A DNA stretch of 25,609 nucleotides from a virus (IMGVR_UViG_3300045988_034843); one strand, 5' to 3'; positions 3,160 through 25,501 are shown, counted from the stretch's first letter. A program made the numbers and translations. Notes: generated by a model not told the origin, from the sequence alone.

Positions 3160-3244
3160 CGAGCGGCGGCACATGGATGTGCCTACAATTATCAATAATT
3201 GTTTACACTCGTTGCAGTTAAAAGCATTATACTCATGTTTAAAA

Positions 3245-3259
3245 TTACCCGATTGGTAA
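3245..3259. promoter_or_regulatory. Dyad operator-like site TTACC-CGATT-GGTAA (copy 4)
   Basis: Centre 29 bp upstream of ATG 3281, downstream of a TTATACT -10-like element. Confidence 0.6.
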
Positions 3260-3280
3260 AGTCGATTGGTTGAGGTTCAT

Positions 3281-4175: not shown

Positions 4176-4337
4176 ATGAAAAAAGCATTTGCTGCACTGT
4201 TCGTTTTGTTGTCTCTGGTAGCTTCAACTCAGGCCTTTGCCGGTCGTTGTCAGCACGACAGCGACACTGCTGCTGACGGCTCCCGCTGCGGTGGGCGTTC
4301 TGCGGATTCCCGCCCGGGTGGCGGTGGCATTCGTTAA
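4176..4337 (+). CDS. Small predicted secreted peptide (53 aa) with N-terminal signal sequence
   Basis: Internal ATG of track ORF 4104-4337; MKKAFAALFVLLSLVASTQAFA looks like a Sec signal peptide with AFA cleavage motif; mature part Cys/Gly/Asp-rich; weak RBS. Confidence 0.4.
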   Translation: MKKAFAALFVLLSLVASTQAFAGRCQHDSDTAADGSRCGGRSADSRPGGGGIR

Positions 4338-4360: not shown

Positions 4361-4372
4361 GTGACATGTCAC
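4361..4372. repeat. 12-bp perfect palindrome GTGACATGTCAC (copy 1 of 3)
   Basis: Exact palindrome abutting the hairpin at 4343-4358; overlaps the stop codon of the lipoprotein gene. Confidence 0.6.
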
Positions 4373-4749
4373 GCAACGCAATTATTACCGCGCCATGTAA
4401 CATTTTTAATAATCTTATCAGCACCAAACTCAACGTAAACAGAGCAACTGAAATGGAGTGTATAACCGCCATCAGTTGTTGCGTATGTGTTTGAATATAT
4501 AGTATTACCAATTAGATTAGACGTAGTATTATACGTTGTGGTTTGTGGTACGTTATAACTACCAGAGCTTGAGTAAACATACACTCTGTTTCCATCTGGA
4601 GATGTAAGCTCTCCCTGAGGATACCCCCACTGCTGAACCATTGCGTCTATACTCTGCCCGCGCCACGTAAGCATATTTCTTTCAAACTGTGCAGCTGACT
4701 GGCATCCAACGAGAAGCATAAATCCAAAAATCAAAAATACTTTTCTCAT
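4369..4749 (-). CDS. Putative lipoprotein (126 aa)
   Basis: Internal ATG of track ORF 4369-4785 with AGGGG RBS; MRKVFLIFGFMLLVGCQSA has a lipobox (LVGC); mature part Thr/Ser/Tyr/Asn-rich. Confidence 0.7.
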   Translation of the reverse strand: MRKVFLIFGFMLLVGCQSAAQFERNMLTWRGQSIDAMVQQWGYPQGELTSPDGNRVYVYSSSGSYNVPQTTTYNTTSNLIGNTIYSNTYATTDGGYTLHFSCSVYVEFGADKIIKNVTWRGNNCVA

Positions 4750-4834
4750 AATTACCCCTATCATGGAAAAACAGCACCAATCCACAAATTAACTAGTTAT
4801 TTTATTATTCTTCCGAACAATACAATTCCGAATA

Positions 4835-21036: not shown

Positions 21037-21051
21037 ATTACCTTTCAGGTA
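21037..21051. promoter_or_regulatory. Dyad operator-like site TTACC-TTTCA-GGTAA (copy 5)
   Basis: Same half-sites and spacing; preceded by TTGACA (21016-21021) 17 bp before TACCTT; lies between the 20947 minus-strand start and the plus-strand tRNA. Confidence 0.6.
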
Positions 21052-21374
21052 ACCAAAGAGTTCATTCCGGTTACTAACCTGACTGGCTTGTCGTTAAATT
21101 GAACAGGTGGAGTGAGCTTTTATTTTGAGCAGTACGGCGTATGGCACATGCGCCGATAGCGGTCTGGATGCGTTTAAGGGGCACCCTCCCTGGCTGTGGC
21201 AAACGAACCAGGTAGCCGGAATGTGCAAGTCGAGCGGTTTTATTCCGCGCACGGGGATTCACCATCCCGGCGATTCGGTGTGACGCCTCGGAAGAGACGA
21301 GGGTACAACGATGAGAGCATTTATGGAGCCGCGACAAAGTGTGGCGCCTTAACAGGCTAAGTGCTCTCAGCGTT

Positions 21375-21649: not shown

Positions 21650-22072
21650 ATGAAAACAGCCGACATGCTAGCTAAATATCTAAATGAATGGCCGTGCAAA
21701 TATGTACGCATTGTTCAGGGTGATGATTCAATTTTTTATGGTGTTTTTGCAGGAAATGAAATGCTTTGTGAAGCAATTCCAGGTGAGCGACTTGCCGGGT
21801 TAACGCTTAGCGATGACCATGGAATAGGAGTTACTTGCCATGACTGGATTTCAGCGCAGAAAACTGAAATGGAAAAAGGCAATGTGTTTGATATTTCTCG
21901 CGCTGTATACGCCAAAGAAAAAAGTGATGATGATTACATGCGCGAAAACTTATACAACATGAAGTTACAATGCCTGGCTGAAGTGCTTAGTAAAAGATCT
22001 TTACTTGATGTGGTTGGTGCTGAGCAGGACGCCAAGGCAATCAACGCCGCATTCGATAAAATAACCTTCTAA
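21650..22072 (+). CDS. Hypothetical protein (140 aa), opposite-strand insert (moron) between terminase and portal
   Basis: Track ORF; AAGGTGA RBS; AT-rich relative to flanking structural genes; bracketed by terminators; no motif recognised. Confidence 0.65.
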   Translation: MKTADMLAKYLNEWPCKYVRIVQGDDSIFYGVFAGNEMLCEAIPGERLAGLTLSDDHGIGVTCHDWISAQKTEMEKGNVFDISRAVYAKEKSDDDYMRENLYNMKLQCLAEVLSKRSLLDVVGAEQDAKAINAAFDKITF

Positions 22073-22076
22073 CGCC

Positions 22077-22088
22077 GTGACATGTCAC
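22077..22088. repeat. 12-bp perfect palindrome GTGACATGTCAC (copy 2)
   Basis: Identical 16-mer context (CGTGACATGTCACAAT) to copy 3; sits between the stop at 22072 and the terminator at 22093. Confidence 0.6.
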
Positions 22089-22092
22089 AATC

Positions 22093-22117
22093 AGCCCGCC
22101 GATTCGCGGGCTTTTTT
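22093..22117 (+). terminator. Rho-independent terminator AGCCCGC-CGATTC-GCGGGCT + T6
   Basis: 7-bp stem and T-run; the T-run overlaps the last codons of the minus-strand terminase gene. Confidence 0.7.
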
Positions 22118-23591
22118 ATGCAAAAGGATCATAGTCTGTGATGGCTTTGCCTTGCTGGTTCTGCTGCCCGGGAATTCGCAGACGCTTCGACACAGGGAAC
22201 GCAAACGTCAGCAGTAGCGCATCGCCTTTACCAGGAGAACGCCCAAGTCGCTCTTTGATATCTTCCTTCGGTTCGATAACGATTTTACCGTCCACGCGAA
22301 CTTTGTACTCTGCCGTCGACAGGTCGTCCGCTGTTTCCTGGTCATCCAGCATGCCGCCGAGCCTCAGCCATGTCTTGCATGAGTTGAACATCTCCCCACG
22401 CTTGTTGAGCATCTGCGGGTCAGTAGACGCGCCACCGAACGGAACAAGTTGCCATGTACGACCCCAGCCGTCACCGATTGACTTCAAACCGGTTCCGTAA
22501 CCGAAGTCGATGAACACCGCGTCAGCCTGATACTGGTCTTCAAAGTCAGCGATACGCTTCGCCATAATCAGATCGTCGGTAGTCTTGTTGCCAGTCCACA
22601 GCACCTTACTGTGTAGCCCCTGCCGCAGGTATATCACCGCGTCATCAACGCCTGAATATGCCGGGTCAACACCGATTATCACCGGAGCATGTGCAACCTG
22701 CGCAGCGGTTACCACCCGTTTCATTGCCTCGTCAGTAAGACCGGTAGGGATAAACTGCAATTCAGATGCATCAGGGAATATGCCACGCACACGGATTTTA
22801 ACGAAGTCGCTATCTTCCCCGTAGTCATCAACCCATTTCTGCAACTGCTGTTTGTTGGTGCCTTCCACCGTCCTGCTGTCAATCTGCGCAGTTTTCCAGC
22901 GGTGTTTGTATTTGCGGAAACATTCACGGAAACGCCCGGTGTTACGTGTAGGGTTTCCGAAAGCCACCCAGATAATCTCAGTGTCTTCGTCCGTTAGCGC
23001 ACCCTCGGCAACTTCCCACACCAGATCCGCAATGTTCGACGCTTCATCAAATACCACGATGATGCGTTTACGCTCGTTGTGTAGTCCGGCGAATGCCTCA
23101 GTGTTGTGCTCAGACCAGGGGATTGCGTCAGCTCGCCACCGCTTGTCGTGCCCAGGGTCATTGCTGTACATCGCGGTAGCGGTACAGGTAAACCAGTCTT
23201 TCGTGATAGCAAGGTTTGACCACTTGATAATTTCCGGCCAGGTCTTCGTTCGTAGCTGGTTGTCGGTGTTGGCGGTCACCACGACCTTACAATCCTCGCA
23301 AGTGGACATGCCCCAGTTGATCAGCATTGAGATGAATGCGGATTTACCAATACCGTGACCAGAAGCACGTGCCAGCATAAGCGGCTGATATCGCGTCTCT
23401 GGATTCTGCAGGTGATCACGTATCTCTCGGAACGCATCAGCCTGCCACTGACGTGGGCCGGTGGCATGTGCCAGTTCAGTCCCCTCTTCCCCCCATGGGA
23501 ACGCATAGAGGGCATAGCCAAGCGGATCGTGAGTGAACCCTGCAATATCCTCGATTAACTGCTCTTCAGGAGATAACGCTGTATCTGTCAC
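22116..23591 (-). CDS. Terminase large subunit (491 aa)
   Basis: Track ORF; Walker A-like GHGIGKS, Walker B-like IIVVFDEAS, C-terminal acidic nuclease-like region (GVDPAYSGVDD); ATGA overlap with the upstream small subunit. Confidence 0.8.
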   Translation of the reverse strand: MTDTALSPEEQLIEDIAGFTHDPLGYALYAFPWGEEGTELAHATGPRQWQADAFREIRDHLQNPETRYQPLMLARASGHGIGKSAFISMLINWGMSTCEDCKVVVTANTDNQLRTKTWPEIIKWSNLAITKDWFTCTATAMYSNDPGHDKRWRADAIPWSEHNTEAFAGLHNERKRIIVVFDEASNIADLVWEVAEGALTDEDTEIIWVAFGNPTRNTGRFRECFRKYKHRWKTAQIDSRTVEGTNKQQLQKWVDDYGEDSDFVKIRVRGIFPDASELQFIPTGLTDEAMKRVVTAAQVAHAPVIIGVDPAYSGVDDAVIYLRQGLHSKVLWTGNKTTDDLIMAKRIADFEDQYQADAVFIDFGYGTGLKSIGDGWGRTWQLVPFGGASTDPQMLNKRGEMFNSCKTWLRLGGMLDDQETADDLSTAEYKVRVDGKIVIEPKEDIKERLGRSPGKGDALLLTFAFPVSKRLRIPGQQNQQGKAITDYDPFA

Positions 23592-24187
23592 TGATTGCCA
23601 TCCTGACGTTCTTTCAGTCTCTTCCTGGCTGCCGCTATGCGATCAGCAATTGTCACATTCACATTAACATCCAGGCGTTCTTTGAATGCGTTGACGTCGA
23701 CGTGCTTACCAATCAGTTCGAGGTTCTTCACCTTGTCAGGCCATTTAATTTTTTTGAGGATGCCAACCAGCTCTTTCTCGTCTCCACGGCCTTCGAACAT
23801 GTCGGCCAGTTCGAAACCTGTCAGGTACTGCCGCCAGACCTTAGGCCATTCCGAGACCGGCTTGATGCTCATATCGTCGTTGAGAATGTCAATCACGTCC
23901 ATCTGGTCGATCTCCACCAGGCGCATGAGAACGTAATCAGCACTGACGCGCATTCGTTTGTTGCGCTCCTCCATCAACTCGGCAATCCGTTTCTGAATGC
24001 GTTCATCGCGCATCATGACACTGGCTTTAACTGCCGCTGTATTTGGGGAGAATCCTGCATTAATCGCAGCCTGAGTCTGGTTTTCAGGCGTTTTGATGTA
24101 TGACTGGCAATAAGCCTCCTGCATTGCTGTTAGTGGCTTAAATTGCGTTGATTTGCGTTTATAGGTTTTAGGTTCAGCAGGCATCAT
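23588..24187 (-). CDS. Terminase small subunit (199 aa from ATGATG at 24187)
   Basis: Track ORF 23588-24265 begins at a TTG; the in-frame ATGATG at 24187 is preferred; helix-turn-helix-like TAMQEAYCQSYIKTPENQTQAAINAGFSP; directly upstream of and overlapping the large subunit. Confidence 0.55.
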   Translation of the reverse strand: MMPAEPKTYKRKSTQFKPLTAMQEAYCQSYIKTPENQTQAAINAGFSPNTAAVKASVMMRDERIQKRIAELMEERNKRMRVSADYVLMRLVEIDQMDVIDILNDDMSIKPVSEWPKVWRQYLTGFELADMFEGRGDEKELVGILKKIKWPDKVKNLELIGKHVDVNAFKERLDVNVNVTIADRIAAARKRLKERQDGNQ

Positions 24188-24204
24188 AACCACCGTGGTA
24201 ATAG

Positions 24205-24219
24205 TTACCGTTGTGGTAA
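24205..24219. promoter_or_regulatory. Dyad operator-like site TTACC-GTTGT-GGTAA (copy 6), embedded in GGTAA-TAG-TTACC-GTTGT-GGTAA-TAG-TACC
   Basis: Centre 25 bp upstream of the terminase small-subunit ATG; extra half-sites on both sides form a tandem GTGGTAATAG(T)TACC direct repeat. Confidence 0.55.
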
Positions 24220-24230
24220 TAGTACCATGC

Positions 24231-24256
24231 AAAATAAAGCCGCCATAGTTGGCGGC
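24231..24256 (-). terminator. Rho-independent terminator (minus-strand reading GCCGCCA-ACTA-TGGCGGC + TTTATTTT)
   Basis: 7-bp GC stem followed by a T-rich run on the minus strand, upstream of the terminase genes. Confidence 0.65.
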
Positions 24257-24297
24257 AGTATTCAAAACCCATCAAATTCATCATGCATAACCCACTC

Positions 24298-24309
24298 GTG
24301 ACATGTCAC
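24298..24309. repeat. 12-bp perfect palindrome GTGACATGTCAC (copy 3)
   Basis: Overlaps the stop codon of the gene at 24306-24644 and lies about 40 bp from the terminator at 24231-24256. Confidence 0.6.
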
Positions 24310-24644
24310 AATATTAATTTCGTTTCATGCCAGCCTTTAGTCACCCAGCATTGCGAGTCACCATTACACGGGCATGAATTCACAGGAACGCTCTCGCCGC
24401 ACTTACCGCAACGTTTTCTGCTGATCGATTTTATACGCCCGCGCACGCGTGCATCATCCTGGCGGATCAGTAACGCTATATACTCACCAAATTCGTAAGG
24501 CGCACGCCCGGGGCGACGCGTGGCACAGTTACGCTCAAGCATTTCAATTTCCTGAGCATCAAGCACAATCTCCAGCTTACGCACACCAGATGCAGCTTGT
24601 CTGGCTCTCTGAGCGGCTTTGCGCTCTGCTGCTGATTTAGCCAT
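24306..24644 (-). CDS. Small basic protein with C-terminal Cys cluster (112 aa)
   Basis: Internal ATG of track ORF 24306-24722 with AAGG 9 nt upstream; basic N-terminus MAKSAAERKAAQRARQAASGVRK; C-terminus CGKCGESVP...CPC...C resembles C4 zinc-finger regulators of the TraR/DksA type (tentative). Confidence 0.5.
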   Translation of the reverse strand: MAKSAAERKAAQRARQAASGVRKLEIVLDAQEIEMLERNCATRRPGRAPYEFGEYIALLIRQDDARVRGRIKSISRKRCGKCGESVPVNSCPCNGDSQCWVTKGWHETKLIL

Positions 24645-24670: not shown

Positions 24671-24892
24671 TTATCTGTGTGTTGCCGATGTGCGGTGATT
24701 CTCTTCTATCAATTCCACGCATTCTGACCGACGAACAAATAATTCTTCTCCGTTATGAATTACGACATAGCCGTAAGCGGTTTTACGCATCACATCGAAC
24801 TCATCCCATACGGAAATACCACACTCTGCTAACGAGCAATCCAAATAATCTTCCGGATGCTTGTCGGTGTTATTAATGATGCGAATCCTCAA
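24671..24892 (-). CDS. Hypothetical protein (73 aa), TTG start
   Basis: Track ORF; AAGGTG RBS about 7 nt before a TTG start; an internal ATG start is an alternative. Confidence 0.4.
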   Translation of the reverse strand: MRIRIINNTDKHPEDYLDCSLAECGISVWDEFDVMRKTAYGYVVIHNGEELFVRRSECVELIEENHRTSATHR

Positions 24893-24922: not shown

Positions 24923-25501
24923 TTAGCCACGGTTAACCTCCTGCGGCGGTTCTGGCAGCGGCATCCAGTGGGTTACCTCCTTGAGATACAGGTCTTCGCC
25001 ACCACCGTCATCCCAAGTGGGCTTGCCATCATTAAACCAGTCGCCATATACGCCGACCTGAGTGTTGGGGATGCTTGGTGGGTAGTTGTTTTTAAAGTCA
25101 GCAGCTAACACATAGCATTGTCGCTCTCCCATTTCTGGCATTCGCTCACTACAGCTTATCCAACTATCCGGAGTTACCGGAGAGTTGCGCATTGCGACCT
25201 TTAATGCCTCATAGAAGCAACCTTTCAGATTGTTGAACTGACGCCCATTTAGCGGGCCATGTTCAGTCAGCATGTCGTGTAATTTCCATGCCGCGTCGTT
25301 TACTTCGTTGGATGACAGGGGAGGCAACTTGTAAGTTTGGCTTACAGGTTCTGCACTATCAGCTTCGCGCAGCTTCTGTAGCTCTGCTGCCATCGCTCTC
25401 ACGACTTCAACTGGTGCCCTTGCAGCAAACTCTATGTTGGTGATTAGCTCATTAAGATATTGCTCGCCTGGATACTGTTTCTTATCGGTTATAGTGGTCA
25501 T
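24923..25501 (-). CDS. DUF551-like phage protein (192 aa)
   Basis: Track ORF; GGAGAG RBS; C-terminal WISCSERMPEMGE...VTHWMPLPEPPQ matches the DUF551 pattern common in lambdoid prophage early regions, as I recall it. Confidence 0.65.
   Translation of the reverse strand: MTTITDKKQYPGEQYLNELITNIEFAARAPVEVVRAMAAELQKLREADSAEPVSQTYKLPPLSSNEVNDAAWKLHDMLTEHGPLNGRQFNNLKGCFYEALKVAMRNSPVTPDSWISCSERMPEMGERQCYVLAADFKNNYPPSIPNTQVGVYGDWFNDGKPTWDDGGGEDLYLKEVTHWMPLPEPPQEVNRG

Follow-up and report, generated by a model that had tools for sequence, protein, structure and literature searches.

Gene order and repeated elements at the early-to-late junction

The window, by which we mean the whole stretch of 25,609 nucleotides analysed, derives from an epsilon15/phiV10-type (Uetakevirus) prophage of E. 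coli, and its segment 23500-25609 matched phiV10, TL-2011b, ZX5, epsilon15 and their relatives in a megablast search. Phages of this type are used for O157 detection and are common prophages of E. coli and Salmonella. The gene of interest closes the early-right operon and is followed across the junction by the terminase genes (Table 1), the TerS start at 24184 agreeing with the 594-bp annotation in phage TL-2011b. Its reading frame extends from an ATG at 24644, with AAGG 9-12 nt upstream, to a TGA at 24306-24308 and specifies a protein of 112 aa (MAKSAAERKAAQRARQ...CGKCGESVPVNSCPCNGDSQCWVTKGWHETKLIL), a length shared by most homologues among the matches listed. A longer reading of 138 aa from an ATG at 24722 would run into the upstream ORF. 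The name NinX was set aside because in phage ZX5 that label belongs to the neighbouring gene.

Table 1. Coordinates of genes, palindromes and other elements in the window and of palindrome copies in related genomes
Genome	Feature	Position	Strand	Remarks
Window	DUF551 gene	24923-25501	minus	
Window	73-aa ORF	24671-24892	minus	
Window	Gene for the 112-aa protein, predicted RHH plus C4 zinc knuckle (epsilon15 gp49 / N15 gp46 family)	24306-24644	minus	Last gene of the early-right operon
Window	Palindrome copy 1, proposed cognate site	24298-24309		Holds the TGA of the 112-aa gene
Window	Intrinsic terminator, early operon / TerS boundary	24230-24256	minus	Stem-loop 24256-24239 GCCGCCAACTATGGCGGC, then TTTATTTTG
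Window	Two adjacent operator dyads, ATTACC-N5-GGTAAT	24186-24202, 24204-24220		One mismatch each; overlap the TerS ribosome-binding site
Window	Small terminase subunit, TerS	23588-24184	minus	First gene past the junction; Terminase_2, E=3e-29
Window	Large terminase, TerL, then structural genes	22116-23591	minus	
Window	Palindrome copy 2	22077-22088		Convergent junction of the TerL stop (22116-22118) and plus-strand ORF 21650-22072
Window	Palindrome copy 3	4361-4372		Holds the TGA of minus-strand ORF 4369-4785
Window	Other ATTACC-N5-GGTAAT copies	1003-1019, 2123-2139, 2216-2232, 3244-3260, 21037-21053		
Window	Palindrome, all copies	24298, 22077, 4361		3 exact
epsilon15	Palindrome	2142, 19517, 39612		3 exact
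TL-2011b	Palindrome			2 exact, plus one 1-mismatch copy
N15 (L249)	Palindrome	28550, 33237, 39269		3 exact; 33237 inside repA
phiKO2 (L376)	Palindrome	5510, 10390, 16267		3 exact; relative positions as in N15
Pantoea phage AH07	Palindrome			2 exact
Vibrio phage K308	Palindrome, GTGACACGTCAC			2 in 8.7 kb; one 19 nt upstream of the TerS ATG
P2-like Yersinia phage	Palindrome			1, plus a 1-mismatch neighbour
Aeromonas phage 13AhydR10PP (L375)	Asymmetric variant GTGACCGGACAC	116, 809, 2563		0 exact; variant present three times

An earlier note, written from the DNA alone, had pictured a small basic protein with a C-terminal cluster of cysteines, whose stop codon overlapped a palindrome and was followed by a terminator and by a dyad array in front of terminase, and this description was borne out in its entirety. 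The basic N-terminus and the Cys cluster are both present in the 112-aa product, the Cys pattern recurring in 62 of 62 aligned family members, and the TGA codon is contained in the 12-nt palindrome GTGACATGTCAC (24298-24309), which has the form (C)GTGAC-NN-GTCAC(G). A minus-strand stem-loop with a T tract was found 3' of the gene, the hairpin at 24256-24239 forms in RNA folding, and the epsilon15 record annotates the equivalent element as a rho-independent terminator. Repeats of GTGGTAATAGT (24195-24205 and 24213-24223) lie directly upstream of the TerS start.

The further idea that the dyad array is a target of the Cys-cluster protein was not supported. The array holds two copies of ATTACC-N5-GGTAAT, of which there are seven in the window at one mismatch or fewer and none in shuffled sequences, and the epsilon15 record annotates the same motif as a repressor binding site at seven places, three of them in the immunity region and one directly before terminase. 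Because the dyads carry a motif that is labelled in this way, they are probably not the site of the 112-aa protein, and they most likely belong to the prophage-repressor regulon. Copies in the window are located in the AntA antirepressor region, before a gp3-like gene and before the terminase gene, and segments of the late operon may be under direct repressor control. Three RNA hairpins with ACUAU loops were also considered as an antiterminator target and discarded when two of the three turned out to be operator-type dyads.

In 25.6 kb a lone 12-nt palindrome would attract no notice, but three exact copies of the same 12-mer are remarkable. When up to one mismatch was allowed, five matches were found in the window against 0.72 expected, a number reached in 0 of 100 shuffles. 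Three accessory ORFs without a Pfam family all terminate at or beside a palindrome-terminator pair: one of 140 aa (21650-22072, plus), which separates the large terminase from the structural genes and runs in the opposite direction to them, a short one that begins like a signal peptide (4177-4337, plus) and one of 138 aa that begins like a lipoprotein (4369-4785, minus).

Family and predicted fold of the 112-aa protein

The protein matched PHROG 536 over its full length (E=2.5e-54; residues 1-111 on profile positions 2-114 of 115), the PHROG's label of 'transcriptional regulator' being itself a prediction, and scans against Pfam, NCBIfam and PADLOC assigned no family. We counted 155 family clusters at 50% identity among 1.84 billion proteins, and the phage records with members comprise phages of Escherichia, Salmonella, Klebsiella, Yersinia, Enterobacter, Citrobacter, Pectobacterium, Pantoea, Aeromonas and Vibrio. 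Among the members are epsilon15 gp49, N15 gp46 and phiKO2 gp45; identity to the 112-aa protein is 79% for the epsilon15 homologue and 34% for N15 gp46, and the epsilon15 record itself remarks on the similarity of gp49 to N15 gp46. Literature searches on N15 gp46 and the family found no functional study, and no relevant paper came up when full texts were searched for the 12-mer.

In an alignment of 62 diverse members R13, C79, C82 and C99 are invariant, R8, E54, L59, P87 and G95 are nearly so, and every aligned member has four cysteines in the pattern CxxC-x7-10-C-x7-9-C. An AlphaFold model of the monomer computed from this alignment (pLDDT 91.7) places helices at residues 5-19, 30-42, 52-74 and 100-108, an extended segment at 20-29 and the Cys knuckle at 79-99, and contains the strand-helix-helix arrangement of the ribbon-helix-helix (RHH) fold. 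Curated sequence models gave weaker signals: RHH_5, RepB-RCR_reg and RHH_1 were matched at E=0.013-0.07 in one or two of the 62 members and a CopG-type LexA-regulated protein of NCBIfam at E=0.05, with no significant match to any curated RHH model in the Pfam scan of the 62 members. In the PDB, phmmer returned no match for the single sequence, a Foldseek search of the PDB returned one RHH-like match only, and the sole Foldseek match among viral structures was a fragment of the same family. The product is very probably an RHH-type DNA-binding protein. With its RHH-like modelled fold, basic N-terminal helix, C4 zinc site and PHROG 536 label it looks like a small nucleic-acid-binding regulator, and we infer that it dimerises and binds zinc.

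We compared the family with the RHH regulators CopG, Arc, Mnt, ParD and the TacA antitoxins, and with the R1 CopB/YbfE type, which has a basic N-terminal extension. It differs from them in its long inter-helix loop (RRPGRxPY), in carrying a C4 zinc knuckle and a short helix where a C-terminal partner or oligomerisation domain is usual, and in having its putative sites at the 3' ends of operons, not at promoters. Specificity in RHH proteins is usually determined by residues of the beta-strand. These residues vary across the family while the half-site of the palindrome is invariant, which counts against the palindrome as the protein's site; reading of it would then fall mostly to the conserved N-terminal helix.

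A palindrome that accompanies the gene

To follow the palindrome beyond the window we took the post-stop sequence from about 250 loci encoding relatives (designated L with a number), which gave 184 distinct contexts. Exact GTGACNNGTCAC was present at the stop codon or no more than 48 nt past it in 168 of the 184; the TGA lies inside the left arm of the palindrome in 158 of these 168 contexts, and in 10 there is a separate stop codon with the palindrome 5-9 nt on. Since just one of the 12 palindrome bases is coding, coding constraint does not account for the conservation. Even N15 gp46, at 34% identity, and phiKO2 gp45 have the palindrome at their stop. The sequence past the palindrome is unlike between relatives and holds, in different loci, terminase behind a terminator, a small inserted gene, a gene with a LexA-box-like promoter or an AlpA/xis-like gene. 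The extra small gene between palindrome and terminase is seen in near-identical Uetakevirus relatives (L025, L029, L023 and others), and the LexA-box-like TACTGT-N8-ACAGTA is in the promoter of the gene 3' of the palindrome in L221, L223, L160 and L232. What is new here is a 12-mer palindrome that travels with an uncharacterised RHH and zinc-knuckle gene across very different phages.

Whole genomes conformed to this picture, with two or three exact copies in most of those listed in Table 1, against a chance expectation of about 0.04 exact copies per 40 kb. The central dinucleotide is constant within each genome, being AT in Uetakeviruses, TG in N15 and phiKO2 and AC in the Vibrio phage. More than 60 related loci have a second copy 2.2-2.45 kb past the stop of the gene, a distance that in the window corresponds to the end of TerL, and the epsilon15 copy at 2142 is the counterpart of this second copy. 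Further sites in related loci number 70 in 1.16 Mb against 1.1 expected, though these loci are not independent, and their shared ancestry means that such counts overstate the independent support. The N15 and phiKO2 palindromes are of the CGTGAC(TG/CA)GTCACG type, with the repA copy about 620 nt from the repA start. An identification of the N15 palindromes with SopB centromere sites was rejected, as the SopB-type repeats are TGCGACCNNGGTCGCA at 33480, 35931, 41125 and 45562. In the Aeromonas phage one copy of GTGACCGGACAC lies 13 nt before the ATG of the homologue; behind two of its three copies stands a near-identical ribosome-binding stretch, GARRGGTTAAAT, and then an ATG, one of which is the homologue's start.

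For 96 of 126 sites among the matches listed in a database-wide scan with the 14-mer CGTGACATGTCACG, the 1-15 kb fragment held no family gene. These may be short fragments, chance matches of the kind expected in a large collection, or palindromes without the gene; for at least one such fragment (L303) the parent contig has a family gene elsewhere (L149). Because the fragments are short and chance matches are expected, the scan is uninformative on the association. Two recurrent palindrome contexts were also compared with the phage collection by BLAST, with no useful result. In nine contigs, mostly GC-rich (L270, L278, L292, L308, L325, L329, L340, L346 and L347), the 14-mer is surrounded by dense GTGAC/GTCAC arrays that look like iterons or operators of another GTGAC-reading protein. 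In two diverged members (E about 1e-8 to 1e-9; L296 at 11693 and L304 at 5281) the 14-mer falls within the coding sequence, about 120 nt ahead of the stop codon and just upstream of the Cys cluster.

The palindrome usually stands between a stop codon and an intrinsic terminator, in that order. In the window, 42 nt separate copy 1 from its terminator; read along the plus strand, the surroundings of copy 2 are the ORF 21650-22072 stop, 4 nt, the palindrome, 4 nt, a hairpin (22094-22111) and a T tract; and at copy 3, on the minus strand, the hairpin GGCCGC-TTTC-GCGGCC (4359-4344) and TTGTTTTT come directly after the palindrome. The gp18 and gp49 stops of epsilon15 are likewise within palindromes, and the annotated terminators are 2 and 22 nt beyond. 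A strict terminator was present within 75 nt at 50% of the distinct sites in gene loci and at 7 of 13 sites in whole genomes, compared with about 1% of random positions and 4% of positions after ORF stops.

Taken with the predicted fold, the co-occurrence of gene and palindrome on which this link rests suggests that the palindrome is probably the DNA site of the 112-aa protein. The chief rival, which we regard as rather unlikely, is that the palindrome is an independent gene-boundary element unbound by the protein (a hairpin at mRNA 3' ends, a piece of a mobile cassette of stop and terminator, or a hot-spot where phage modules recombine) and that the protein is an RHH regulator that controls something else, for instance its own promoter or genes of the host. 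Such an element would agree with the divergence of relatives exactly at the palindrome, with the frequent placement of a stop codon in one arm and a ribosome-binding site directly after, and with the capacity of the palindrome's RNA to fold into a small hairpin. It would also agree with the palindromes at the gpM-gpL junction of phi80-like tail operons and with the many sites whose fragment carries no family gene. The variants, however, carry single uncompensated changes, and the Aeromonas form GTGACCGGACAC is unable to pair as a hairpin and yet is present three times. That the arms are kept as sequence, that changes are uncompensated and that a non-pairing variant is retained favours a duplex-DNA site read by a symmetric protein. 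Against an independent element we also count the joint presence of gene and site in phages of hosts ranging from Escherichia to Vibrio, with proteins that are 31-34% identical; the repA-internal site, which is in the same place in N15 and phiKO2 and is not a module boundary; and P22 and phi80, the two gene-negative genomes examined, in which gene and exact site are both absent. In the phi80-like operons the stop of minor tail gene M falls within CGTGACATGTCACG, a terminator follows 8 nt on and gene L comes next (L293, 1119-1132; similarly L250, L258, L279, L297, L299, L300, L303, L310, L326, L332 and L349); phi80 itself has the terminator after gene M and lacks the palindrome.

Possible roles at operon ends

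Our best reading, whose prospects we judge to be about even, is that the protein is a sequence-specific binder of double-stranded DNA with the palindrome as its cognate site, and that it would modulate transcription at operon ends, the early-to-late junction included. It would bind as an RHH dimer, with the arginine-rich N-terminal helices (R8, R13) and the ribbon reading the GTGAC half-sites, and the zinc knuckle would either support oligomerisation or contact RNA polymerase. RHH proteins bind as interlocked dimers that insert a two-stranded ribbon into the major groove of repeated or palindromic operators, and the 12-mer is a candidate site of that kind. The protein, a product of the last early-right gene, would sit on the palindromes that closely precede terminators and, once bound, would change the behaviour of RNA polymerase at operon boundaries. 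An action on termination or read-through specifically is a tentative proposal. The favoured direction would be for transcription of the early operon to read through, with a delay, into the late genes, and the alternative would be stronger termination, that is, insulation.

Delayed read-through is favoured by the gene's position, last in the early operon and directly before the early/terminase terminator. It is favoured as well by two negative results, in that no Q-like or Ogr-like late regulator is annotated in TL-2011b or epsilon15 and no promoter-like site was found between the terminator and the terminase start. Insulation fits better where a copy closes a unit, as do the TL-2011b copy after ant and copy 3 of the window, which have nothing downstream on the same strand. 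In Uetakeviruses the protein may regulate read-through into terminase, and it would then work via the 12-mer and not the dyads. The Q-type antiterminators of lambda provide a working analogy only: they too come last in an early-right operon and have a DNA site just upstream of the terminator that precedes the late genes. No sequence similarity of the 112-aa protein to them was detected, and lambda Q loads at a promoter-proximal pause; the likeness is one of position.

Late-gene timing in epsilon15/phiV10-type phages is not annotated, and one protein with one 12-bp site makes a concrete candidate pair. Operon ends carry the palindrome in several phage types that are unrelated to one another, and it is found also in telomere phage-plasmids, in the latter with one copy inside repA. 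If the protein binds the site, the two would constitute a new regulatory module that works at terminators rather than promoters, and a conserved sequence at phage gene boundaries would be explained.

The earlier note had proposed a different regulator, an Ogr-like zinc-finger activator of the late genes, which would reach a terminase promoter by way of the dyad array, the 12-mer or the two together. We consider this improbable, even though the gene is the last of the early genes and adjoins terminase, TL-2011b and epsilon15 have no other annotated late regulator, a weak sigma-70-like -35 element (GTGACA) falls within the palindrome and the Vibrio phage has its palindrome 19 nt before the small-terminase ATG. 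The dyads are labelled repressor sites in the epsilon15 record, the stretch from the terminator to the terminase start has no promoter-like site, and the single sigma-70-like site in the region compares with 2.8 expected by chance and is not significant. No match to PF04606 (Ogr_Delta) was found among the first 25 of 27 families listed in the Pfam scan of the 62 members, so the comparison with Ogr was not upheld. The homologues in N15, phiKO2 and AH07 are far from terminase, each of these phages having its own Q-type late regulator, and in the P2-like Yersinia phage the homologue comes after replication gene A and not beside the late genes. Because N15, phiKO2 and AH07 have Q homologues, the common role of the family is probably not that of the late activator, and late activation as a family-wide role is unlikely. 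The sigma-70-like site itself (24280-24309, minus) has its -35 inside copy 1 and CATGAT as its -10, is about 25 nt before the terminator and loosely resembles lambda pR'-tR'.

The palindrome also resembles matS, the 13-bp site GTGAC[AG]N[TC]GTCAC that is bound by MatP in E. coli and that, in its true form, is avoided by phage genomes (PMC3603311); MatP contacts matS via an RHH domain (PMC12756933). The half-sites of the two are identical, and the spacer is 2 bp in the phage palindrome versus 3 bp in matS. The proteins differ: MatP, which organises the Ter macrodomain, combines a four-helix bundle, an RHH domain and a coiled coil, and the 112-aa protein has one N-terminal helix and a zinc knuckle, with no four-helix bundle and no coiled coil. 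The MatP Pfam models PF06303 and PF17414 had no match in the family, an hhalign comparison of the family with MatP gave a probability of 0.8%, by which sequence homology was rejected, and a search for MatP homologues recovered near-identical MatPs only. The likeness to matS suggests how the site may be read, as a resemblance and not as membership of the MatP family, and the identity of the half-sites is a possible tie to host chromosome organisation.

Two bolder versions of the proposed role follow from these resemblances, and we think it improbable that either is right. In one, the protein would be a DNA-site-loaded modifier of RNA polymerase, loaded by the matS-like palindrome and gripping polymerase through a TraR-related zinc knuckle, and wherever an operon of the phage ends it may turn termination off (or on), as a device for timing the late genes that is unrelated to lambda Q or N. 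In the other, the protein may compete with or mimic host MatP at the chromosome terminus, given that the half-sites equal those of matS.

The profile and structure searches that the earlier note had recommended yielded PHROG 536 and an RHH-like fold, with no Ogr match, and the similarity to TraR/DksA that they showed was weak and confined to the zinc finger. Searched against the PDB, the family profile gave YbiI (E=0.012) and TraR (E=0.022-0.025) as its best sequences, and hhalign aligned residues 47-106 with TraR at a probability of 49.6% (E=1.7e-4), the two having C-x2-C-G-x2-(I/V/L)-P...G...C in common. TraR, DksA, YbiI and the family are alike in size and in having a helix followed by C-x2-C-G-x2-hydrophobic-P...G...C. 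The Cys spacing departs from this likeness, with C-x2-C-x17-C-x2-C in DksA and TraR versus C-x2-C-x7-10-C-x7-9-C in the family, so that the fourth ligand is displaced; none of the 62 members matched PF01258 at E<0.1; and no TraR or DksA structure was among the fold-search results. In TraR and DksA a free N-terminal helix or coiled coil extends its acidic tip to the polymerase active site. In the model, the helix aligned to the N-terminal helix of TraR is the second helix of the family's RHH-like core, and the residues just before the aligned stretch are the basic loop RRPGR, in contrast to the acidic N-terminus of TraR. A TraR/DksA-like secondary-channel factor that reprograms host transcription on RNA polymerase without binding DNA, for which the YbiI and TraR profile matches and the shared motif would speak, is highly improbable given the absence of PF01258 and of TraR or DksA folds, the displaced ligand, the basic loop and the placement of the aligned helix within the RHH-like core. 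Membership of the TraR/DksA family is not supported, and a distant kinship of the zinc module alone is possible.
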